Assembly (NCBI GenBank): GCA_965248535.1
Contig: CBDFJR010000005.1
Span: 1,344,001-1,408,000 of the forward strand
DNA: 64,000 bases
Reading direction: 5' to 3'
DNA from: Phormidesmis sp.
GTDB lineage: Bacteria; Cyanobacteriota; Cyanobacteriia; Leptolyngbyales; Leptolyngbyaceae
Both the position numbers and the translations under genes were made by a program. The first letter of the stretch is position 1. Every line of letters begins with the position of its first letter. Shown piece after piece: positions 16,767-38,763 of the stretch. The notes below the pieces were generated by a model. That model searched no databases and had not been told where the DNA came from. It saw only the letters and a list, made by a program, of their open reading frames with translations.

Positions 16767-17204
16767 ATGTTTAGCCCACGATCGCTTCGAGTTGTAGTTG
16801 ATACCAACGTTGTGTTTGAGGGTCTAACTAAACAAGGCGGAGCTTCAGGTCTTATTATTGATGCTTGGTTGTCTAGGCTGATAGTCGTTTGCGTCTCTAC
16901 TGCACTTGCCTACGAATATGACGATGTGCTGTCTCGGAAGCTTTCAAAATCGCGTTGGATTACAGTGCAGCCTATATTAGGAAAACTACTCAGTATCGCT
17001 CAATACACAAATATTTATTTCTCGTGGCGACCGACTTCCCCTGATGCTGGTGACGATTTAGTCATTGATTGCGCTATGAATGCAGGTGCTATCGTTGTCA
17101 CGTCTAATATCCGTGATTTTCAGGGTGCGAGAGAGTCTCTGGAGATGCAGATAATGACACCCGTGCAGTTTGTGAACTTATTAGCATCAGGAGAAAAGCA
17201 ATGA
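16767..17204 (+). CDS. PIN-domain toxin (type II TA)
   Basis: RVVVDTNVV, YEYDDVLSR, PDAGDDLVIDCAMNAGAIVVTSNIRDF. Confidence 0.9.
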   Translation: MFSPRSLRVVVDTNVVFEGLTKQGGASGLIIDAWLSRLIVVCVSTALAYEYDDVLSRKLSKSRWITVQPILGKLLSIAQYTNIYFSWRPTSPDAGDDLVIDCAMNAGAIVVTSNIRDFQGARESLEMQIMTPVQFVNLLASGEKQ

Positions 17205-23920: not shown

Positions 23921-24295
23921 ATGGCACTGGTTCAAAGTCAGCCTTTCAAGAACCTCTATTTCTTAGTCGCCCTCAAAAGCTTTTTGATCTGGACTTTTAC
24001 TCTCACAGTTTGCATGATTGTGGTTGGTTTTCCGGCTCTGGTTTTAGTGATTTCAGTTGGCGCTCTGGCAGCAGTTACCTTACACGCCATCATGCCATTT
24101 AGCGCCGTTTTATTGATTGCGGTTGGGCTAATCGGCATTCATGCCATTGGCATTATGCTAGCGGCTGCATTCATGACTGCTAATGGCATTCACCCTCAAG
24201 AGGTTGAGTGGTTGCGCTGGCTCAATGGTCAAGCCGACCCCTTACACACGTCAGTCTATGCCGCTTGCCCACTCACATGTGAAATCAATTCTTGA
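23921..24295 (+). CDS. Hypothetical membrane protein
   Basis: Hydrophobic ORF with GGAG upstream, long AT-rich promoter region and downstream terminator. Confidence 0.75.
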   Translation: MALVQSQPFKNLYFLVALKSFLIWTFTLTVCMIVVGFPALVLVISVGALAAVTLHAIMPFSAVLLIAVGLIGIHAIGIMLAAAFMTANGIHPQEVEWLRWLNGQADPLHTSVYAACPLTCEINS

Positions 24296-27524: not shown

Positions 27525-28133
27525 TTGAGCTACTATCGTCAAACCCCTAACGCGTTCGCCACTTCTTATCTTGAGGATTTGCGAAAAAAGATTTTAGCTT
27601 GCCCTTATTTTGCGGTCAATAATCTCAATCGTGATTTTGTCGGCACCAAAGGATTTTCGGTGGTGTTTCAGCGATCGCGCCTCGAAACCGTTGCCGAGAA
27701 GTTTCCCTTCTTTAAGAATTATCTAGATCGAGCACTTGAGTCTAGCTGCAATGCGTTTTATCTCAATCCCTTAATGCTGCAAGAAGGGTCTCGCGTCGAT
27801 CCACATATTGACCGATCGCTGCGGTCTTATTGCAAAACGATCCATCCTCCTGACAGTGTGAGCGTGCTCTATGTGCAGGTGCCATCGGGAATGCAGGGCG
27901 GTGAGCTAGTTTTGCGAAATCATAATCGTCAAGTCGGGCAAGTTAAGCCACAAGAGAATCTGTTGATTCATTTTCAGGGCGATTTGACCCACTCGGTAAA
28001 TCTGGTTAAAGTTCCCGGAACCCGACTGAGCCTAGTCTGTGAACAATATAATTTGGAGGAGTCGGAGTTGCGAGAGATTCCAGAGTTTACGATCGAGTCC
28101 CGCGTGATGAGTGCCAAGCGACCCCGATCGTGA
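27525..28133 (+). CDS. 2OG-Fe(II) oxygenase family protein
   Basis: HID motif, GGEL, LTHSV, RLSLVCEQY. Confidence 0.85.
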   Translation: MSYYRQTPNAFATSYLEDLRKKILACPYFAVNNLNRDFVGTKGFSVVFQRSRLETVAEKFPFFKNYLDRALESSCNAFYLNPLMLQEGSRVDPHIDRSLRSYCKTIHPPDSVSVLYVQVPSGMQGGELVLRNHNRQVGQVKPQENLLIHFQGDLTHSVNLVKVPGTRLSLVCEQYNLEESELREIPEFTIESRVMSAKRPRS

Positions 28134-28259
28134 ACAGAACCAAACTTCTATTGAGAGAAGAGCACAATGTAGGACAAACCGCTCTGAAACTTTGCATCCA
28201 CATCAGGGCTTAAGCTAGTCTGCTCTGACTGGGTTATGTTGCCGCGATCGCAACCATCA

Positions 28260-28478
28260 TCAAGCAATTTGAAGCGTCCTTGGTTCAGGGATAGGTTCTC
28301 CTTCTGCTTGCCAAGCCTCCAAGTACATTTCAATCACTTCTTCGCCGTTATGAATGGCTTCCTCACGGGTTTTGCCATGCGTGCAGGGCATGACAACAAG
28401 ATTGGCAAACTCTGGAATCGTGACGAGGAAAAGCTGATCTTCGTCAGACCATTGAACAATCATGCTGTATCGATTCAT
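28260..28478 (-). CDS. hicB: HicB family antitoxin (copy 1)
   Basis: MNRYSMIVQWSDEDQLFLVTIPEF...THGKTREEAIHNGEEVIEMYLE...PIPEP. Confidence 0.9.
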   Translation of the reverse strand: MNRYSMIVQWSDEDQLFLVTIPEFANLVVMPCTHGKTREEAIHNGEEVIEMYLEAWQAEGEPIPEPRTLQIA

Positions 28479-28699
28479 GAATCCCCGTCCTCCCTTAACT
28501 CTTTCAGTACAGTAAGTAACTTTGCTAGTTGTTTTTCTAGGTAGAGTGGTACATCGTCTCCATCCTTGCCTGGAATTGTCAGTGTTTCTTTGAGCAAAGG
28601 ATGTCGCCAACGCTCATGGCTGCCTTTGCCACGCTTTGGCAGATAAACAAACCCTTCACGCGCAATCTGAGTTTTTAACGCTCGAATTTTCCTGGGCAT
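28475..28699 (-). CDS. hicA: HicA family toxin (copy 1)
   Basis: GF...RGKGSHERWRHP...LTIPG. Confidence 0.9.
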   Translation of the reverse strand: MPRKIRALKTQIAREGFVYLPKRGKGSHERWRHPLLKETLTIPGKDGDDVPLYLEKQLAKLLTVLKELREDGDS

Positions 28700-28752
28700 C
28701 GATATTGCCTAACTTTTCCCCTATTCTTTTTATTATCCTATTAAGAGTGCCG

Positions 28753-28857
28753 GAGAACGTAAATGGGATCGCGTTCTGCAATCTCTCAAAAGCGGATGTA
28801 GTGCGCCATCAGTTGGTGCAGCGCATTGTCGAAGCTTATGAAGAGTTTGAGCAGTAG
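28753..28857 (+). pseudogene. phoH: Orphan 3' fragment of phoH (copy 1)
   Basis: Translates to ENVNGIAFCNLSKADVVRHQLVQRIVEAYEEFEQ*, the PhoH C-terminal DVVRHxLVxxIVxAY motif; no N-terminal part present. Confidence 0.85.
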
Positions 28858-28920
28858 TTCACTGAGAGGGGACGAAATGCAGCGTAATGGCAAGGACAAA
28901 ATCAGCCCCTAATTCGCCTC

Positions 28921-29166
28921 TCATTCCCCTGTGTAGAAATAGGAAAACAGCTCTTCTTCAGGAATATATTGGCTTGCTTGCCGAAGAATGACTCTACAGG
29001 TTCCTGTATCTAGCTGCTTATGATTTGGTACGATTAGCGTCTCGTTGCCTGATTCTCCAACTCGGCGGAGTTTAATGTGACTTCCTTTCTGGCTGTGAAC
29101 TTGAAATCCAAACGATTCGAGGATTGAAATCACACCTTCCGCAGATAAGCGTTTCAGCTTAGGCAT
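28921..29166 (-). CDS. hicA: HicA family toxin (second type)
   Basis: MPKLKRLSAEGVISILESFGF...QKGSHIKLRR...VPNHKQLDTGT. Confidence 0.9.
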   Translation of the reverse strand: MPKLKRLSAEGVISILESFGFQVHSQKGSHIKLRRVGESGNETLIVPNHKQLDTGTCRVILRQASQYIPEEELFSYFYTGE

Positions 29167-29392
29167 ACTGTGGAACTAGCTCAAACGTAACCACGATCGA
29201 GGGTTGAGAGATGACTTGCAATCGGCTCAAATCTTCATCTTCGAGATACAGAGAAACCGCCTCACTCAGATTTTGCATGACTTCATCCAAGGTGTCTCCC
29301 TGAGTCACAATGGCAAACTCTTGGCACTCGGCAACATATCCGCTTTGGTCGCCCGGATAAACTGTTGCGTGGATCTTTTCTCGAAGGGTCAT
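29159..29392 (-). CDS. hicB: HicB family antitoxin (second type)
   Basis: GYVAEC...IVTQGDTLDEVMQNLSEAVSLYLE. Confidence 0.9.
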   Translation of the reverse strand: MTLREKIHATVYPGDQSGYVAECQEFAIVTQGDTLDEVMQNLSEAVSLYLEDEDLSRLQVISQPSIVVTFELVPQYA

Positions 29393-29505
29393 TGACTCTC
29401 ACAGGAATTAAGTGGGTTTAATTTTAGCGTAGCACTCCGGCGAAGTGCGATCGTACTTTTTCCCAACTCAATTCTTAATCCCCGTAGTAGCGATCGCAAC
29501 CATCA

Positions 29506-29724
29506 TCAAGCAATTTGAAGCGTCCTTGGTTCAGGGATAGGTTCTCCTTCTGCTTGCCAAGCCTCTAAGTACATTTCAATCACTTCTTCGCCGTTATGAA
29601 TGGCTTCCTCACGGGTTTTGCCATGCGTGCAGGGCATGACAACAAGATTGGCAAACTCTGGAATCGTGACGAGGAAAAGCTGATCTTCGTCAGACCATTG
29701 AACAATCATGCTGTATCGATTCAT
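29506..29724 (-). CDS. hicB: HicB family antitoxin (copy 2)
   Basis: Same protein sequence as 28260-28478. Confidence 0.9.
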   Translation of the reverse strand: MNRYSMIVQWSDEDQLFLVTIPEFANLVVMPCTHGKTREEAIHNGEEVIEMYLEAWQAEGEPIPEPRTLQIA

Positions 29725-29945
29725 GAATCCCCGTCCTCCCTTAACTCTTTCAGTACAGTAAGTAACTTTGCTAGTTGTTTTTCTAGGTAGAGTGGTACAT
29801 CGTCTCCATCTCTGCCTGGAATTGTCAGTGTTTCTTTGAGCGAAGGATGTCGCCAACGCTCATGGCTGCCTTTGCCACGCTTTGGCAGATAAACAAACCC
29901 TTCACGCGCAATCTGAGTTTTTAACGCTCGAATTTTCCTGGGCAT
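29721..29945 (-). CDS. hicA: HicA family toxin (copy 2)
   Basis: Two amino-acid differences (L>S, K>R) from 28475-28699. Confidence 0.9.
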   Translation of the reverse strand: MPRKIRALKTQIAREGFVYLPKRGKGSHERWRHPSLKETLTIPGRDGDDVPLYLEKQLAKLLTVLKELREDGDS

Positions 29946-29998
29946 CGATATTGCCTAACTTTTCCCCTATTCTTTTTATTATCCTATTAAGAGTGCCG

Positions 29999-30100
29999 GA
30001 GAACGTAGATGGAATCGCGTTCTGCAATCTCTCAAAAGCGGATGTGGTGCGACATCAGTTGGTGCAGCGCACTGTCAAGGCTTATGAGGTGTTTGAGTAA
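29999..30100 (+). pseudogene. phoH: Orphan 3' fragment of phoH (copy 2)
   Basis: ENVDGIAFCNLSKADVVRHQLVQRTVKAYEVFE*. Confidence 0.85.
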
Positions 30101-30225
30101 TAACGCACCACCGATAGCAACGAGCCTCAAACTCAGCACGCCTATTTTTCAACCAGCCGCTGCATTTGATTTGTTATACTTCTGAAGATCGAATCACTGG
30201 TCAGTTTTGGGAAGTGAAGTGCAGG

Positions 30226-31371
30226 ATGCTAGACAGCAAGCAGCAAGCAGAAGAAGAGCTGGAGAATGCTGATCTTGGTCTGGGTGTTGACCCCGATGAA
30301 GATGAAAGTATAATTCAGCCGTTTGACCCTGAATTAATTAGGGTTGAAACTCGACCGATGACAATTGACCTGTTGCTACAACGTATTAAATATGAGGAGC
30401 TTAATCTAACGCCAGATTTTCAGCGGAAGGACGGGATTTGGAATCCTCGTACTAAAAGTCGTCTCATTGAATCCATCCTTATTCGGATTCCACTGCCAGC
30501 TTTTTACATGGATGCCACTGATGAGGATAAGTGGGTAGTTATTGACGGCTTACAAAGATTAACGACCTTGAAAATGTTTGTTAATGATAAATCACTAAAA
30601 CTTAGCGAACTTGAGTTTTTGACCCAGCTTGAAAATAAAACTTTTGAGGAATTGCCACGCAATCTACAACGACGAATTATTGAAACTCAAGTCACAGTCT
30701 ATTTAATTGAGAAAGGAACGCCTAGCAAAGTTAAATTTAATATCTTTAAACGCATCAATACTGGTGGCTTGCCGTTATCGTTACAAGAAATTCGCCATGC
30801 TCTAAATATTGGTCATTCAACTAGGTTTTTGGAGAAACTTGCTAACTCGGCTGAGTTCAAGAAAGCAACTGCTCATAGAAACTTCAGCCAACGGATGGCA
30901 GATCGTGAGTTCATACTACGATTTCTAGCTTTTGTGATTCATCCCTACACCGACTACAAAGCGACAGAGTTTGATAGCTTTCTGAGTGACGTGATGGCAG
31001 AGATTAATGAAATGAGTGAACAGAGAATTAACGATCTGGAACTGAAATTTAGCAAGGCTATGATTGCTGCTTACGAAATTTTTGGCAATGATGCTTTTCG
31101 TAAGCGATCCAGACAAGATGCCCCAAGGTCACCAATTAATAAAGCATTGTTTGAATCTTGGTCAGTTAGTCTAAGTCAGTTAAGTAGGGATCAGATTCAA
31201 ACCTTGGTAGAACGTAAAGAGCAATTGAAAATGGGCTTTATTGGACTCATGAACGATCGCGAAGTGGAGCCTAAATTTGAGTCATCCATCTCTCAAGGAA
31301 CGGGAGATACTAGAAAAGTCAAACGTAGGTTCAGTGCTATTGAGCAGTTGATTCAAGAGGTCTTAGCGTGA
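30226..31371 (+). CDS. DUF262 (ParB/GmrS-like) protein; Menshen NsnA-like
   Basis: PDFQR...W...KSRLIESILIRIPLPAFY, VIDGLQRLTTL, IFKRINTGG. Confidence 0.88.
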   Translation: MLDSKQQAEEELENADLGLGVDPDEDESIIQPFDPELIRVETRPMTIDLLLQRIKYEELNLTPDFQRKDGIWNPRTKSRLIESILIRIPLPAFYMDATDEDKWVVIDGLQRLTTLKMFVNDKSLKLSELEFLTQLENKTFEELPRNLQRRIIETQVTVYLIEKGTPSKVKFNIFKRINTGGLPLSLQEIRHALNIGHSTRFLEKLANSAEFKKATAHRNFSQRMADREFILRFLAFVIHPYTDYKATEFDSFLSDVMAEINEMSEQRINDLELKFSKAMIAAYEIFGNDAFRKRSRQDAPRSPINKALFESWSVSLSQLSRDQIQTLVERKEQLKMGFIGLMNDREVEPKFESSISQGTGDTRKVKRRFSAIEQLIQEVLA

Positions 31372-32477
31372 TCTGCCAACTGCGCTTACAAAACTTCAAA
31401 CGATTTGAGGATCAATCTTTAGAACTTGGAGCATTGACTCTCCTTTCAGGACTCAATGGAATGGGGAAATCTTCCGTTCTGCAATCCCTTTTGCTGTTGC
31501 GTCAGTCATATCAACAAGGATTATTAGAATCTACTGGTTTAGCCTTAAACGGCGATTTAGTCCGTATTGGCACTGCCAGAGATGCTCTATTTGAGGATGC
31601 GAGAGAGGACAAAATTGAATTTGTTCTTACTTTTAGAAATGGCAGTGAAGCAATCTGGCAGTTTGGCTATGATCCTGAAGCAGATATTTTAGGGCTGACT
31701 TCATCTGCTGTGCCATCTGAAACTTACCAACTCAGCTTATTTGGTGATAATTTTCAATACTTGCAAGCTGAACGTCTTGGGCCTCGAACCTCTTTTGCAA
31801 TATCTGATTTTCAAGTGCGACAGCATCGTCAGTTAGGAACTATGGGCGAGTATGCTGCCCACTTCCTATCCATTTTTAGAGACTCTGAAATTTCAACTCC
31901 TACGCTCAGTCATCCGCAAGCAAAGTCTTTAAACTTGCTGAACCAAGTTGAGGCTTGGTTGGGTGAAATTAGTCCTGGAACTCGGATTCATATCGTTGAT
32001 AGCCCAGGTATGGATCTGGTGAGCCTACAATATTCTTTTGGACTAAGCAAGGAGTATCGTGCAACAAATGTTGGCTTCGGCATCACATACACGTTGCCCG
32101 TGATCACTGCCATCTTGTCAGCCAAACCTGGAGCTTTAATACTACTTGAGAACCCAGAGGCGCATCTGCATCCCAAAGGTCAAGCTCTCATGGGTAGTTT
32201 ATTAGCCAAAGCTGCGGCTGAAGGTGTGCAGATTATTCTAGAAACTCACAGCGATCATGTGCTAAATGGAATTCGTCTTGCTGTGCATGGAGGAAGTCTT
32301 GATCCTAATGCAGTGCGATTACACTTTTTTCAGAGACGTGAATCTCCGGGGCAGTCTATCAGTGAAGTGATTTCACCCCGGATGAATCGTAGAGGACGAA
32401 TTGACCAATGGCCTGATGGATTTTTTGATGAGTGGGATAATAGTCTTGCTGCGTTACTTCAACCCGTTGAGGAGTGA
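31368..32477 (+). CDS. AAA/ABC-type ATPase with DUF3696 C-terminus; Menshen NsnB-like
   Basis: LQNFKRF, Walker A GLNGMGKSS, NVGFGITYTLP, LLENPEAHLHP, ETHSDH, IDQWPDGFFDEW. Confidence 0.88.
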   Translation: MICQLRLQNFKRFEDQSLELGALTLLSGLNGMGKSSVLQSLLLLRQSYQQGLLESTGLALNGDLVRIGTARDALFEDAREDKIEFVLTFRNGSEAIWQFGYDPEADILGLTSSAVPSETYQLSLFGDNFQYLQAERLGPRTSFAISDFQVRQHRQLGTMGEYAAHFLSIFRDSEISTPTLSHPQAKSLNLLNQVEAWLGEISPGTRIHIVDSPGMDLVSLQYSFGLSKEYRATNVGFGITYTLPVITAILSAKPGALILLENPEAHLHPKGQALMGSLLAKAAAEGVQIILETHSDHVLNGIRLAVHGGSLDPNAVRLHFFQRRESPGQSISEVISPRMNRRGRIDQWPDGFFDEWDNSLAALLQPVEE

Positions 32478-32480
32478 CTA

Positions 32481-33401
32481 ATGGCGGTTGAAATGGTTTT
32501 GAATGATCTGTCTCTTCTTTCTCCCGTCAGCGATCGAGGAACGGCTAGAAAGTTGATGACTGATCTAATTAGTGTGCTCAGTACAGCGGTGATTTCTGGA
32601 GTCAAGACTTTGCGTACTCAGGATAATCTCTACAATCTCATACTCTCGCCTGACTATCCTGTTGCAAGTTGGTTGAATGATGGACAAGTTGAACGGGAAG
32701 AGCGTAGCTTCCTACGAACACTTGGAACTAAAACACCCCTGCTAGCAGAAATCATAGATTCGACTGTCCAAGAGGAAGAGTGCCTGACTGATTTTAGGCA
32801 TCGAGGAGAGCTAGCTTATGCGCTGGGCATTGCGTACTTGCTGAATGCCCTGGTAATTAGTTTTCACTCTGAGCCAAGGTGGAATTGCGACAGTTTAGAC
32901 CTAGAGATTACGAGGTTAGAAGATGAAACAAATTCAGAGGATGTAACTGCGGAACTGACTCTGAAGACGAGTACTGAAAGACTTATTCACGCTAGCCGAA
33001 GAGAGCATATTCTTGGGCACAAGGCACAGATTGAGTATCGCTTTCGTGCAGAGCCTTGGCATTCTGAAGACGAGATACTGCGTTGTCATATCACAGCAGA
33101 TAGGAAAAGTCCCATGTCTGAATGGCTAAATTCTCTTGGCGATCGACGAGCGAAGGAATTTATCCAAGCTAGGCTCAATCAGGTAAAACAGGGTAATTTG
33201 GGTGACTGTAAATCTGTCGGGGAAGGCGTATGGGAATTGAGGATCTTTTATGGCCCTGCCTACCGAATTTATTTTGGTCAGGTTACAGCAGTTCAGCCAT
33301 TACTTCTGAATGGAGGAGATAAAAGCACTCAAGCACAGGACATCATTAAGGCTAAACAGTATTGGCGAGATTATAAACAACAGCAACGTATCTCAGACTG
33401 A
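32481..33401 (+). CDS. Unknown N-terminal domain fused to RelE/HigB-like addiction-module killer toxin; putative Menshen effector
   Basis: C-terminal ~100 aa SPMSEWLNSLGDRRAKEFIQARLNQVKQGNLGDCKSVGEGVWELRIFYGPAYRIYF...GGDKSTQAQDIIKAKQYW. Confidence 0.8.
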   Translation: MAVEMVLNDLSLLSPVSDRGTARKLMTDLISVLSTAVISGVKTLRTQDNLYNLILSPDYPVASWLNDGQVEREERSFLRTLGTKTPLLAEIIDSTVQEEECLTDFRHRGELAYALGIAYLLNALVISFHSEPRWNCDSLDLEITRLEDETNSEDVTAELTLKTSTERLIHASRREHILGHKAQIEYRFRAEPWHSEDEILRCHITADRKSPMSEWLNSLGDRRAKEFIQARLNQVKQGNLGDCKSVGEGVWELRIFYGPAYRIYFGQVTAVQPLLLNGGDKSTQAQDIIKAKQYWRDYKQQQRISD

Positions 33402-33428: not shown

Positions 33429-36400
33429 TCACACCAGTGCAGGTTCGAGGAGTGCGCCTTGCATTCGACTGAGCCAATCGATCAGATTAGAGAGTTGTTG
33501 GTCAGCACTGAGCATTCCCAAGCCGCGCACAGTGACTTTGCCGGGAGTGTAGACAAAGCGAGTTTGCAGATGATTGGGCAGGTTTTCTTTGAGCAGATTC
33601 CAGCCGGGTTCCTCCATTGGGGTTTCGAGAATGACGTGCTGTTTGCCGTCGGGCTTGATGCGAGAAAAGCCGATTTTTTTGGCGACTTGTTTGAGTTCCA
33701 TGACGCGCAAAAGTTGGAGGGCCGCGATCGGGATCGAGCCATAGCGATCGCTCCAGTCTGCCGCAATCTGGGTCAACTCTGGTTTAGAAGATGCGGTGGC
33801 AACTAGGCGATAGGCATCCATTTTTTGGTCTAGGTCGGGAATGTAATCGGCTGGAATAAAGGCGGTGAGACTGAGATCGATCTGCGTGTCGTCCACTTTG
33901 GGAATTTCTTGACCGCGAATTTCTTTAATCGCGTCTTCGAGCATCTCCATGTAGAGATCGAACCCGATCGCGTCCATTTGTCCCGATTGTTCGGCTCCGA
34001 GCAGGTTGCCCACGCCGCGAATTTCCATATCTCGCACGGCTAGCTGATAGCCTGAGCCGAGTTGGGTAAACTCTTGGAGTGCCCGCAGACGTTGACGGGC
34101 TGCGTCTGAGAGTTCGTGTTTTTTAGGATAAAACAGCCATGCGTGCGCCTGAATGCCTGCCCGTCCGACGCGACCGCGCAACTGATAAAGCTGAGACAAC
34201 CCGAACTTTTGAGCGTCTTCGATCAGGATTGTGTTGACTCTGGGAATGTCTAACCCCGACTCGATAATCGTGGTGCAAACGAGAATATCGGCTTCGGCTT
34301 CGCCAAAGGTGAGCATCGTGGATTCGAGTTCTGACTCTGGCATTTGCCCGTGAGCGACTGCAATTCTGGCACCAGGAATCATCTCGCGCAGTTGAGCCGA
34401 GATTTCTTCAATGCCTTCGACTCTGGGAACGACGTAGAAGATCTGTCCGCCCCGATCGAGTTCTTGTCGAATCGCCGATCGCACCATTTCAGGATCGTAG
34501 GGCGACATATGAGTTTTAATCGCACGGCGAGACGGCGGAGGAGTTGTAATTAAACTCATTTCGCGCACGCCAGATAACGCCATATATAACGTGCGAGGAA
34601 TCGGAGTTGCACTGAGACTGAGAACGTCAACTTGAGTTTTGAGCGATTTGATTTTCTCTTTTTGATTTACGCCAAATCGCTGTTCTTCATCCACTACCAA
34701 CAGTCCCAAATCTTGGAACTGAATGCCTTTTCCTAACAGTTGGTGAGTGCCAACGACAATATCCAATTCTCCGGTAGTTAAACGACGCTGAATATCTTTG
34801 CGCTCGTCAGCCGTGCGAAATCGATTCAGCAATCCGACCTGAATGGGATAAGGTGCAAATCGTTCTTTGAGGGTGTGATAGTGCTGTTGAGTCAAAATCG
34901 TGGTTGGTGCTAGCAATGCTACTTGCTTTCCGGCGATGACGGCTTTAAATATTGCCCGAATCGCAACTTCGGTTTTGCCAAAGCCGACATCCCCACAGAC
35001 CAATCGATCCATCGGACGATCGCTCTCCATATCCAGCTTCACATCTTGGGTGGCTTTAAGCTGATCGGGCGTGGGCTGATAGGGAAACGATTCTTCCATC
35101 TCTTGCTGCCAAGGCATATCAGTGGGGTAAGCAAAGCCGGACTGCTGCGATCGCTGGGCATAGAGATGCAGCAAATCCACCGCAACTTTTTTGATCGCTT
35201 TCCGAACTTTGCTCTTGGTTTTCTCCCAGGCTTTGCTCGACATTTTGTTGAGTTGCGGCACCGCTTCGCCCACGCCCCGAAACCGAGACAGGGCGCTGAG
35301 TTGATCGGCTGCAACTCGCAGTAAACCATCGGCATATTTCAATACTAAATACTCGCGAGTTTCTTCATTAAGCGTCAAACTTTCGAGCTTGATGAATTGA
35401 CCGACCCCATGATTTTTGTGAACCACATAATCACCGGGCTGCAATTTGTTGGGATCAACTTGCTTAGACGCAGCGCGGCGACGTTTGCGAACATAGCTCG
35501 GAGTCGTGAGGCTGTGTTGTCCAAAAAACTCCCGATCGGTGACCAACACCATCCGAAAAGTTGGCAGAATAAAGCCTTCTAGCTCGGCTAACCCCGAATA
35601 TTTGACCGCCACCGGAACGTGCTGAATTTGCAGTTTGTCGATCGCTAAAAAATCTCGCGGGTTGGGCACAAACTGCGCGGGGCAATCATGCTCTTGCAGC
35701 AGCGAAACTGAGCGAGACGGCTGGGCTGAGACGAGCCAAACTGAGAAGCCCCGATCGCGCTCTCCTCTCAACGTTTCAGCGAGTCGCCCAAACTGGTGGG
35801 GCACCGCAGGAACGGGACGGCTGGCGAGATTTAGCCCATTCTTCTCTTCTGCCAGTTCGCTGAGAAAGAGACGATCGAAGCACTCAACTTCAGCCAGAGA
35901 CGCAGCAAACGAACGGTGCGTTTTAGGGAACGGGTGAGAGATTTCTTGCCAATGTTCTTCGACTTGATCAAACCAGCGATCGCCGTGGGCTTCACACATT
36001 TCTGGTTCGTCAAGCGCGATCAAAGTATTGTCAGGTAAATAATCTAGCAGAGACGCAGGTTTTGAGAAAGCGAGTCCTAAAAAGCGGCGCATTCCCTCGA
36101 TCGCGTGTCCTTGCTCAAATTTTTCTTGATCTTCGGGAGAGAGATAAGGCTCAACTTGCTCAAACGTTAGATGAGATTGAATAATCGGGCTGAAACTCGT
36201 GGGAGTCAGCACCAAGCGATCGATGCGATCGAGCGATCGCTGCGTAGACGGATCAAACTCCCGAATCTGATCTAATTCGTCGCCAAACAACTCCAATCGA
36301 ACAGGCAGTTCTGCTGCGACCGGAAACACATCGATAATGTCTCCTCGACGGCTCCACTGTCCTTCGGTTTCGACGAGATTGACGCGATCGTAGCCCAGTC

Positions 36401-36896
36401 TTGCTAACTCGTTACTGAGCGTATTGAGGTTTAGCTCTTTGCCACGATCGAGCGACAAACAATAGGGCGCAAAGGCTTCGACAGGCGGCAGGTGAGTTTG
36501 CAGGGCGCGTTCGGTGGCCACGATCGCCAGAGCACCCGGCTTTTCGGTTTCGTCGGTCGTCTTGACCAAATCTGCCAAGACCTGCAACTGTCCCCAATTC
36601 ATCTCTGCTTCGGGGTCAAACACCTCGTAGGGCGACGTTTCCGACGTGGGATAAAAATGCACCGTTTGCCAGCCCATTGCCTCTAGTTGAGCGCTCCAGC
36701 GTCCGGCTTCTTCTAAGGTTGCCGTGACCACCAGCAACGGACGGGTTTGAGCTTGCGCCAGCGTAGACGCGACTAAGCCCTTGGGCAATCGTGCTAGCCC
36801 ACTCAGCCGCAAAAATTGCTGCTGCTTGAGTTTGTTGAGCAGTTCAGTCGTTAGGGGCAATCGGCCGAGGGCACGAGTGATCGAAGAAAACGCCAT
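33429..36896 (-). CDS. mfd: Transcription-repair coupling factor
   Basis: [49 protein letters not shown]. Confidence 0.98.
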
Positions 36897-37851: not shown

Positions 37852-37918
37852 GAACGGTTACTGCAAGCCACAGCCATTAGTTATTCTCGATGATCTTACC
37901 AAGTTGACGAGGCGATCG

Positions 37919-38034
37919 GAAGACGTGACGGGCGAAGGGTAAAACTCAGATACACTAAAACAGTCCGCACCATCCCTGCCAAATCAACAGGCAGCGCCAA
38001 GAATGCCTCCCACCGTCGAATGTTTGATTATCTT
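37919..38034. repeat. 116-bp direct repeat, copy 1 (promoter and first codons of corC-like gene)
   Basis: Matches 38648-38763 with 3 mismatches (offset 729). Confidence 0.93.
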
Positions 38035-38063: not shown

Positions 38064-38324
38064 CTAGCTCTCGTCTGCTGCATCTGAAAGGCTAGCCTGT
38101 GGTTTGGGGGCAAGCGCTTGGTTATTTTGCGTGACTCTGACTAGAAATCGCAATGCTTCGTTGACAGCCTCAGCATTAGGAAACATCGCTGCAACATCAG
38201 GATCTAACCGCACCGTTGTTTCGCCAAAGTTGTTGCGTCCAGACCCTAATCTCCTAACCCGCAGACTTGCCAGGTCATACTCTGACCGAAGCTCATCATC
38301 CCTAATTGACTCATCCCTTTTCAT
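38064..38324 (-). CDS. BrnA-like antitoxin
   Basis: DDELRSEYDL...VRLDPDVAAMFPNAEAVNEALRFL; overlaps BrnT end. Confidence 0.85.
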   Translation of the reverse strand: MKRDESIRDDELRSEYDLASLRVRRLGSGRNNFGETTVRLDPDVAAMFPNAEAVNEALRFLVRVTQNNQALAPKPQASLSDAADES

Positions 38325-38583
38325 AAGCTTCTCGTTCGCTTCGTGTGACTTCTCTAGCACTGATGAGGCGAGTTAACTCACCCCGCTCTGTATAGGACAC
38401 AATCAGTAATCGTCTTTGGTTTGACTCTCCCACCATCAGATAACGCGCCTCCTGTTCCGAATGGTCTGGGTCATAGAAATCAATGTAGAGCGGGTCGTCA
38501 AATACAGTTTTGGCTTCCTCAAACGAAACTCTATGCTTTGAAACGTTTCTAGCTGCTTTAGTTTCGTCCCACTCAAATTTCAT
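38311..38583 (-). CDS. brnT: BrnT family toxin
   Basis: MKFEWDETKAARNVSKHRVSFEEAKTVFDDP...RLISAR. Confidence 0.92.
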   Translation of the reverse strand: MKFEWDETKAARNVSKHRVSFEEAKTVFDDPLYIDFYDPDHSEQEARYLMVGESNQRRLLIVSYTERGELTRLISAREVTRSEREAYEKG

Positions 38584-38647
38584 GAAACCAGTCTAGCCAG
38601 TTTCGCAGAGAACTTTAAACCTAAGTCGGTTTGTGACGAGCCAAATA

Positions 38648-38763
38648 GAAGACGTGACGGGCGAAGGGTAAAACTCAGATACACTAAAACAGTCCGCACC
38701 ATCCCTGCCAAATCAACAGGCAGCGCCAGGAATGCCTCCCACCGTCGAATTTTTGATCATCTT
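38648..38763. repeat. 116-bp direct repeat, copy 2
   Basis: Contains the start of the intact 38732-40090 gene. Confidence 0.93.

Follow-up and report, generated by a model that had tools for sequence, protein, structure and literature searches.

The window analysed here is a stretch of 64,000 nucleotides from a Phormidesmis sp. genome (GenBank assembly GCA_965248535.1, contig CBDFJR010000005.1, positions 1,344,001 to 1,408,000 of the forward strand), and positions given below without a contig name refer to it. Between a 2-oxoglutarate (2OG)-Fe(II) oxygenase gene and mfd, it contains two copies of a unit in which a hicB-hicA toxin-antitoxin (TA) gene pair is joined to the last codons of phoH, a fragment that we call a phoH tail. 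BLAST aligned 28244-28851 with 29490-30097 as a gap-free direct repeat of 608 bp with 13 mismatches and a spacing of 1246 bp. Each copy holds, in order, an octamer of the highly iterated palindrome HIP1, hicB and hicA on the minus strand, about 60 bp of DNA upstream of hicA, and the last ~32 phoH codons on the plus strand. The left end of both copies is the HIP1 octamer GCGATCGC (28244-28251 and 29490-29497), which lies 16 bp past the hicB stop codon. A first-pass annotation of this DNA had described such a unit occurring twice at a distance of 1246 bp, and the alignment bears this out. It had also placed a second HicAB pair after the first copy and a Menshen-like operon after the second, with which Pfam and PADLOC agree, the match of the hicB2-like gene being weak (Table 1).

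Table 1. Features around the duplicated hicB-hicA-phoH unit and of a second repeat-flanked cassette in the window.
Feature	Position	Strand	Remarks
2OG-Fe(II) oxygenase gene	27525..28133	+	Pfam 2OG-FeII_Oxy_3; left neighbour only in this genome
110-bp spacer, 2OG gene to copy 1	28134..28243		no other match in the genome or the sister genomes
Repeat copy 1	28244..28857		from HIP1 octamer to phoH stop
hicB, copy 1 (72 aa from ATG)	28260..28478	-	Pfam HicB_lk_antitox 28.0 bits on a longer 116-aa frame (cut-off 27)
hicA, copy 1 (74 aa)	28475..28699	-	Pfam HicA_toxin 39.2 bits
phoH tail 1	28759..28857	+	where G003 has the end of intact phoH
hicA2	28921-29166	-	Pfam HicA_toxin 57.9 bits
hicB2-like gene	29159-29392	-	HicB_lk 17.4 bits, under cut-off
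Repeat copy 2	29490..30103		hicB 29506-29724 (-), hicA 29721-29945 (-)
phoH tail 2	30005..30103	+	read as the older, displaced copy; private changes and early stop
Menshen-type operon	30166..33401	+	nsnA 30166-31371, nsnB 31368-32477, nsnC 32481-33401
mfd	33429..36896	-	Pfam TRCF, CarD_TRCF_RID, UvrB_inter and helicase domains; conserved right border of the variable gap
Second repeat-flanked TA cassette	37905-38034 and 38634-38763		130-bp direct repeats, 94%
BrnT toxin gene of that cassette	38311-38583	-	partner of 98 aa at 38064-38360

The duplicated pair (hicB1A1) consists of adjacent HicA and HicB genes that both score above the Pfam cut-off, and it is predicted, together with the second pair (hicA2B2), to be a TA system of the HicAB type. 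The Menshen genes form a predicted defence operon: NsnA, NsnB and NsnC were recognised by PADLOC with E-values of 3.7e-147, 2.3e-124 and 4.9e-41, respectively, the three genes are contiguous or overlapping, and Pfam found GmrSD_N, AAA_15/AAA_21/DUF3696 and a weak Gp49 match in the NsnC C-terminus. The PADLOC model matched NsnC over its first ~190 residues only, and its C-terminal ~90 residues give a weak match to a Gp49/HigB-like toxin (23.1 bits, just under the cut-off). Among 50 of the 52 open reading frames (ORFs) of at least 110 aa in the window, no Pfam match was obtained to the PhoH body or to integrase or transposase families; the two ORFs outside these 50 are the second hicB frame, whose short form encodes the same protein as copy 1, and 23921-24295, which was scanned and gave no match. 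The scan agrees with the first-pass statement that the window lacks an intact phoH, an integrase and a transposase.

The two copies of the repeat have diverged very unevenly. When the count was extended to the phoH stop codon (28244-28857), 6 bp beyond the end of the BLAST alignment, 16 differences were found. Only four of them fall within the 518 bp of hicB, hicA and hicA upstream DNA (28320, 28565, 28566 and 28596), whereas 12 fall within the 96 bp of the phoH tails (28762-28857), and divergence thus stayed uneven on proper alignment (Fisher P = 1.2e-7). Shifting the boundary into the tail gave 6/556 versus 10/58 differences (P = 1.4e-7). This recount reproduces the four differences first reported for the TA parts; the nine reported for the tails are those inside the BLAST alignment, and the number rises to 12 once the tails are followed through the stop. 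The HicB protein is the same in both copies and HicA differs by two residues; of the four hicBA differences, one is synonymous and three are protein-changing or lie in adjacent bases of one codon. Within the tails themselves, the first 38 nt differ at two positions and the sequence from position 39 onward at 10 of 58 (17%). Tails 1 and 2 also have in common a G at tail position 33, where all 10 other tails have T. This private G and the near-identical first ~38 nt indicate that a tract of recent identity spans the HIP1 site and hicBA and ends inside the tail.

Both tails match the Pfam PhoH profile only at positions 172-205 of 205, with scores of 27.2 bits for tail 1 and 25.0 bits for tail 2 (cut-off 27). 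Lacking the full PhoH P-loop ATPase domain (PF02562), they are, to judge by these matches, gene fragments and not genes, and they share 88% protein and 81-83% DNA identity with the end of the intact phoH of this genome. Their histories appear to differ. Tail 2 carries five changes absent from the 11 other tails compared, comprising three amino acid replacements, in one of which the codon changed twice, and a stop one codon early; it also has four third-position states in common with the alleles of the sister genomes G005 and G006 (introduced below). Tail 1 has a single private change among the 12 tails and otherwise 7-11 differences from the working alleles of sister species, which places it inside the 6-18 positions by which those alleles differ among themselves. 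Tail 1 thus reads like a working phoH end, and tail 2 like a decayed one.

Repeats of this size can mislead short-read assemblers, and we considered whether the locus could be an artefact in the form of a collapsed or mis-joined repeat. Short assembled contigs from two runs labelled with the same organism bridge tail 1 to hicA2 (28770-29025) and tail 2 to nsnA (30016-30351) with 0 differences, and the same contig sets extend from the 2OG gene 25 nt into copy 1 (28069-28268); these contigs are possibly the assembly's own data and do not amount to independent proof. However, the copies differ at 16 positions, the junctions bridged in the two runs are unique, and the order is found independently in G003 and in a freshwater metagenome contig (run X9) from a relative, which reads tail, hicB2, hicB1A1, tail. 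An artefact is therefore barely credible. Metagenome runs with a small share of such sequences (glacier, freshwater and biocrust) yielded phoH ends of relatives and one tail-hicB2-hicB1A1-tail contig, and a degenerate pattern of the hicA-promoter/phoH-tail junction had no match in the metagenome contig collection.

We then compared the locus with its counterparts in seven sister species of the genus (G001-G007; the present genome is G000, with the window on its contig C5), which are 85-90% identical in DNA to one another. In six of the seven, intact phoH faces mfd across a variable gap of 0.66-2.7 kb or more that holds TA or defence genes; in G004 the contig ends first. At the phoH loci of six of the seven, mfd has 96-98% protein identity. 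A KH-protein gene lies directly upstream of phoH in six of the seven loci (the G007 contig starts at phoH), and ffh lies upstream in all four that extend far enough. The cargo of the gap is MazEF alone in G005, MazEF with unknown genes in G001, MazEF with a reverse transcriptase in G002, two hic pairs with an HNH nuclease in G003, and a PIN gene, HigBA, a hicB2-like gene and MazEF in G007. In G006, the Menshen operon directly follows intact phoH and is broken by an insertion sequence (IS) and an inversion, and tail 2 with Menshen in the window is colinear with this arrangement. In that genome (C13:1425000-1438000), an ISAzo13-type transposase gene lies within nsnA and an inversion breakpoint within nsnB. 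Pfam found no integrase or transposase families in the phoH-mfd gaps of G001, G002, G003, G005 and G007, and the IS of G006 is linked to the inversion. The hic pairs of G003 and the Menshen operon of G006 show that both kinds of cargo do occur beside phoH in relatives, as the first-pass account requires.

In the present genome, the only full phoH is on contig C2; the other phoH sequences are a PIN-PhoH-type paralogue elsewhere on C5 and the two tails. The order on C2 is ffh, S16, KH and phoH, and about 55-60 bp past the phoH stop comes the upstream region of a tRNA-Lys gene and then aroC. The synteny of phoH and mfd in the sister species indicates that the tails sit at the ancestral phoH site and that the body of phoH has moved in this genome; phoH is thus missing from the window because the genome was rearranged, and not because only fragments were ever there. 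Compared with each of the other tails, that of the C2 phoH has 15-21 differences in 96 positions, most of them synonymous, and the end of this gene looks as if it had been taken from a more distant allele. Its best matches among 60 relatives reached 82-85%, pointing to no source, and the 55 bp past its stop had no match there. As a separate observation, the last ~60 bp of the C2 phoH are 72-83% identical to sister alleles, compared with 84-91% among the others, and carry almost only silent changes. Homologues of the 2OG gene in G001, G002, G003, G006 and G007 are on contigs other than that of phoH-mfd, and their homology ends at the stop codon. The neighbours of the 2OG gene and those of tRNA-Lys/aroC change from one sister genome to the next in all five, which leaves no way to reconstruct the path by which phoH was separated from its tails.

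The genome most informative about the repeat itself is G003, in which intact phoH is followed by hicA2B2, hicB1A1, an orphan tail and then the sequence that follows intact phoH in G001, G002 and G004. The window from 28763 to 30097 is colinear with G003 from the end of intact phoH to the orphan tail, over 1343 columns at 86% identity, which is the usual divergence between these species, and the hicA2B2 pair shows 93% protein identity to the G003 pair at the same place. By this colinearity, tail 1 would be the counterpart of the working phoH end and tail 2 that of the displaced copy. In both species, hicA upstream DNA meets phoH at codon 284, which points to a single old event. The piece duplicated in G003 starts at this codon and ends 20-40 bp past the stop, and the intact end has the downstream sequence of G001, G002 and G004 only that far. 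By comparison, G001, G002, G004 and G005 have a single phoH end and no hicAB cassette. A second, independent case was found in G007, where a ~190-bp repeat starting near phoH codon 261 brackets the PIN gene. The first-pass proposal that the tails come from different phoH alleles therefore stands in the sense that they appear, from the G003 colinearity and the private changes, to be old paralogues and not products of a recent duplication.

The same comparison bears on the simplest account of the repeat, namely that the 608 bp were duplicated locally and that selection alone, purifying on hicBA and relaxed on the tails, made the divergence uneven. Tail 2 does show the decay that relaxed selection would leave. 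However, a tail divergence of 12.5% predicts many more silent changes in the 441 coding bases than the one that is seen, and the two-tail layout of G003 indicates that the tails predate the near-identical hicBA copies. We regard a plain duplication as very unlikely.

Instead, the locus probably results from an old insertion of a cassette with long target duplication, followed by recombination between the tails and by a rearrangement that removed phoH, with the TA nature of the cargo contributing to its retention. In the first step, a double cassette (hicA2B2 and hicB1A1) would have inserted near phoH codon 284, either before the split from G003 or by later exchange, and ~120-140 bp of target, from codon 284 to 20-40 bp past the stop, would have been duplicated. 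phoH would have kept a complete end in the proximal copy, now tail 1, and the useless copy beyond the cassette, now tail 2, would have been free to decay. As far as aligned sequences can, the comparison with G003 shows this step. In the second step, which we infer to have been homologous recombination, the two tails would have served as direct repeats, and a crossover within their first ~38 nt would have put a second hicB1A1 before tail 1. An unequal crossover of this kind would leave, between identical hicB1A1 copies and with a period of 1246 bp, a middle tail that is of the distal type in its 5' part and of the proximal type in its 3' part, and a tail-tail crossover would account for an identity of 99% in hicBA next to a divergence of 17% in the remaining tail sequence. 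In the third step, foreign DNA would have been attached to the left end of copy 1, precisely at the HIP1 octamer, and the body of phoH, which now ends in a further tail, would have come to its present place on C2 beside tRNA-Lys. As for why the cargo is a TA system, an insert flanked by long repeats would be easily deleted by recombination, and addictive cargo would penalise the loss, so that the insert survives.

Several points weigh against this history. After an unequal crossover, hicA2B2 should be found left of copy 1; the 110-bp spacer and the 2OG gene occupy that place instead, so that at least one further event is needed. The C2 phoH has neither the sequence of tail 1 nor hicA2B2, and no single two-break rearrangement was found that yields both of the present junctions. 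The species compared are 85-90% identical, with no close pair of empty and filled genomes for the phoH site, and vertical descent and exchange between species cannot be told apart at phoH from these sequences. Nothing in the data shows the mechanism of the first insertion. Survival by addiction is likewise only what we infer, and 11 of 28 repeat-bracketed intervals elsewhere in the genome (described below) contain no recognisable TA gene.

The first-pass annotation had favoured a different course, in which cargo is captured together with the 3' end of a donor phoH and added by homology with the resident tail, each tail marking a separate acquisition. Homology-facilitated illegitimate recombination and single-crossover integration of a circle would be the possible routes. 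Such capture fits the cargo lying between intact and orphan phoH ends in G003 and G007 with two different junctions, the four third-position states that tail 2 has in common with the G005/G006 alleles together with Menshen directly after phoH in G006, and the outlying, mostly synonymously changed tail of the C2 phoH, as from a distant allele; the same model of one homologous anchor and one illegitimate end has been proposed for the immunity arrays of type VI secretion systems (T6SS) and for rhs loci (PMC5361080). However, the near-identity of hicBA and of the first 38 nt of the tails, with a private substitution in common, marks copy 1 as a recent local copy, and the two independent captures that had been read into the window were accordingly not borne out. 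Moreover, only 27 bp separate nsnC from mfd, without an orphan tail on the far side of Menshen, searches of 90 family and 301 class genomes confirmed orphan phoH tails in this genus alone, and the model needs a donor that already carries the cargo beside phoH, which leaves the first insertion unexplained. Donor capture as the source of each tail is accordingly unlikely in our view, although the idea that cargo was taken up with a phoH 3' end keeps some ground, in that it agrees with the cargo between intact and orphan ends in G003 and G007. Menshen follows a tail directly but has no distal tail, so that it need not share the arrival route of the hic cassettes.

The related idea of phoH as a reusable landing pad was also only partly upheld, in that the repeat cases of G003 and G007 speak for it, whereas phoH tails are rare and the same architecture occurs at many other genes. 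Orphan phoH tails were present in three of the eight genomes of the genus (G000, G003 and G007). In 90 genomes of the family, the partial PhoH C-terminus matches among the matches listed were those of G000 and G007 and one fragment in G067, which was not assigned; 53 weaker matches lie outside the matches listed. Of 301 genomes of the class, 291 have the tail peptide, and more than one match was found only in G000 (three) and G286 (two), the second match in G286 being a 50%-identical paralogue inside a 281-residue frame. Orphan mfd tails were found at none of seven loci. phoH is not a widely reused pad. With the same architecture present at many genes, and sometimes at the 5' end of a gene or in intergenic DNA, a duplicated target describes the repeated piece better than a special pad does.

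This wider occurrence emerged when the last 180 nt of 3441 long ORFs were compared with the genome and the whole genome was then compared with itself. Local direct-repeat pairs were defined as repeats of 35-450 bp, 150-8000 bp apart and in at most two copies, and 55 such pairs were found, 36 of them at an identity of at least 78%. Eight of the 36 were dropped, seven as within-gene or paralogous-domain repeats (a MarR domain, FG-GAP, WD40, a TPS paralogue pair, NMT1_2, GUN4 and a response-regulator case) and one as the redundant outer pair of a triple repeat. The 28 intervals kept have repeats of 41-320 bp, compared with ~96-140 bp at phoH and ~190 bp in G007, and 17 of them bracket TA genes. 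The first-pass annotation had suggested scanning for further orphan 3' fragments next to TA or defence genes, and many are indeed present. In 14 of the 17 TA-bearing intervals, the genes have domains named by Pfam (ParE, RelE, PemK, BrnT, HepT with MNT, and PIN with Phd, MazE or DUF2281); the other three hold DUF4160/DUF2442, DUF433/DUF5615 and UPF0175/DUF3368 pairs, which we take to be TA-like. The remaining 11 intervals contain unknown small ORFs, an AlkB-like gene, an LmeA-like gene or nothing, and one of the 28 (L116) holds an IS1 transposase.

Genes with a duplicated 3' end include glgA, tsaE, two TPR genes, two NACHT genes, a TPS exoprotein gene and, from the tail scan, hisIE; at pnp, the repeat begins 11 nt past the stop. 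For hisIE, G003 provides the empty site, and the orphan tail and downstream DNA of the present genome are colinear with it. Empty sites for the two NACHT loci were not found in the sister genomes, where the host genes themselves are variable. Where a cassette is oriented as its host gene, the repeat also takes in the ribosome-binding site and the first 1-20 codons of the cassette. Behind the orphan tail of the NACHT-WD40 locus, a divergent antitoxin has left a remnant (39% over 36 aa, E 3.5e-6), which fits the displacement of an older cassette. Past the orphan tail, other cargo is also found in G007 and G003, and nothing recognisable at two further loci (E and F). One of the 28 intervals is in the window itself, as a second repeat-flanked TA cassette with a BrnT toxin gene, and the repeat at 38634-38763 covers the first 32 nt of a CNNM-family gene at 38732.

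Direct repeats that restore the 3' end of a target gene are a classic signature of integrative elements, and many islands target the ends of tRNA or protein genes. The tails might accordingly be remnants of attachment (att) sites of integrase-driven elements that target the phoH 3' end and have since eroded or were moved in trans by an integrase from another part of the genome. The restored gene end, a feature that PMC2853133 also discusses, and the present position of intact phoH beside a tRNA-Lys gene are in line with this. However, no integrase was found in the window or in the scanned sister gaps, two positions in phoH serve as junctions (around codons 284 and 261), the inserts measure no more than 0.4-4 kb, and the many unrelated targets within one genome, including 5' ends and intergenic DNA, are not what a site-specific enzyme would be expected to choose. 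Neither an integrase nor a conserved core crossover site, the two marks of a site-specific integrative element, was found, and this origin is quite improbable.

The junctions were also examined for HIP1, which occurs once per 980 bp in this genome. HIP1 octamers are found at the left ends of both 608-bp copies, at the start of the hisIE orphan tail and at the cassette/orphan junction of the NACHT-WD40 locus. Among ten hand-inspected pairs, HIP1 lay within 8 nt at 5 of 20 boundaries, compared with 1.0 expected (P = 0.003), a post hoc figure. In the unbiased set of 28 pairs, HIP1 was found at 5 of 56 boundaries versus 2.8 expected (P = 0.15), short of significance; enrichment there was confined to the CGATCG core (19/56 versus 10.7 expected, P = 0.006), and BLAST ends are imprecise as junction positions. 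The link between HIP1 and the junctions is thus a lead that these data do not establish. HIP1 is described as raising transformation and recombination efficiency in a laboratory strain and has been proposed as an uptake signal (bioRxiv 10.1101/2024.09.10.611283; PMC13756078).

Several further loci were noted during these comparisons. Two orphan 3' ends of a 233-aa gene bracket a Phd-PIN pair, and the gene itself is on the other large contig (C2:2379500-2386500 / C5:2183500-2187000); this case resembles phoH, and a reverse-transcriptase gene lies just upstream of the first orphan. At C2:1279400-1284100, three copies of a 90-175-bp repeat separate a PIN-like set and UPF0175/DUF3368, forming a small array that adjoins the TPR/DUF4160-DUF2442 case. 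At C5:353500-356500, a 278-aa ORF of no known family interrupts an AstE/AspA-family gene, 74 bp of which are duplicated at the two junctions. A 320-bp repeat at C5:2388500-2391500 consists of the end of an LmeA-like gene and the first ~60 codons of a DUF2231 gene and is also present upstream of the LmeA-like gene, making this a displaced 5' fragment and not a 3' one. Several kilobases of ~72-nt tandem repeats inside and between ORFs at C5:1512994-1519300 swamped the tail scan. In the window, a PIN_3-domain ORF at 16767-17204 lies among core genes and is possibly another TA toxin.

How TA and small defence cassettes move without a mobility gene is an old open question, and the present strain offers many parallel cases, with 17 TA-bearing intervals and the phoH array as well as empty and filled sites among relatives, in a phylum where transformation and HIP1 as a candidate recombination signal are under active study (bioRxiv 10.1101/2024.09.10.611283; PMC13756078). 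We suggest, tentatively and with more doubt than confidence, that long target duplication may be the main entry route of such cassettes here, perhaps also in HIP1-rich transformable cyanobacteria, with the duplicated target acting as portable homology. If so, the duplicated target, often the last 35-100 bp of a gene, would let host recombination excise, amplify and re-insert cassettes; duplicated targets would also lead to the stacking of cassettes in arrays and to breaks and new joins in the chromosome, as at phoH; and addictive cargo would keep unstable repeat-flanked inserts in place. In that case, the CGATCG/HIP1 junction sites would connect the process with the part in DNA uptake and recombination that has been proposed for HIP1. 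The phoH locus adds two things: its flanking repeats can apparently build cassette arrays, and they are located at a breakpoint through which a core gene changed place. In annotation, short 'PhoH-like' ORFs next to TA genes are best treated as insertion scars and not as genes.

Insertion with long target duplication was reportedly described by Nobusato et al. in 2000. In the parts available to us, Furuta et al. 2010 (PMC2853133) describe such insertions for restriction-modification genes, with repeats of 46 to ~420 bp that are single copy in the empty genome and in some cases lie over gene 3' ends, and without mobility genes. Their cases come mostly from naturally competent species, with one from Microcystis. 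The same text says that genome comparison has revealed this kind of insertion since 2000 but that it has neither a known mechanism nor an experimental system, suggests DNA breakage by the cargo as a common cause, and proposes that modules flanked by long repeats amplify through them. The present repeats exceed the 30 bp used there as a lower limit, and they are single copy at the empty site of a relative, in a comparison that, at 85-90% identity, is weaker than one at the strain level. The inserts are below 20 kb, and Pfam found no mobile-element gene in or beside them in the window and the sister gaps. By these sequence features, the architecture is that of an insertion with long target duplication. 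The small insert without mobility genes, the direct repeats, the overlap with a gene 3' end, the addiction-type cargo and the existence of a cyanobacterial example (Microcystis) all resemble the cases published there. Unlike those, whose cargo is restriction-modification, the cargo here is type II TA, and its RNase-type toxins (HicA, PIN, BrnT and HepT) would not supply the DNA breakage proposed for restriction-modification cargo. In the part of a TA review that was accessible, long target duplication is cited for restriction-modification only. Our literature search found no report of long target duplication for TA cassettes, which is not proof that none exists, and no paper on phoH as an integration target, as judged by title or the start of the abstract. 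A further difference is that the repeats here seeded a multi-tail array and sit at the breakpoint of a chromosomal rearrangement.

C-terminal displacement with orphan arrays is said to have been described by Jackson et al. in 2009. For rhs, cdiA and T6SS effector-immunity loci, Kirchberger et al. 2017 (PMC5361080), in the sections accessible, propose homology-facilitated illegitimate recombination. As in the displacement arrays described there, cargo at phoH would have arrived with a replacement 3' end and pushed the old end downstream, so that strings of orphans form with no integrase. In contrast, the displaced ends of those arrays are variable toxin domains with immunity genes, whereas the orphan here is a conserved housekeeping tail that plays no part in the cargo.

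The locus also resembles integrative islands, in that direct repeats rebuild the end of the target gene and inserts accrete in tandem at one site, but here there is no integrase and no common core site, the junctions vary and the inserts are very small. Like defence hotspots, the phoH-mfd gap holds a species-specific set of Menshen, MazEF, HigBA, HicAB, PIN, HNH and reverse-transcriptase genes. Such hotspots between core genes are usually described without duplicated fragments of the border genes, and the phoH-mfd gap differs in having such fragments. Compared with the papers on long target duplication and displacement arrays, the novelty here lies in TA cassettes as the cargo, in how many cases a single genome contains, in the growth of an array with several tails, and in the position of a repeat at the breakpoint by which a core gene was moved.

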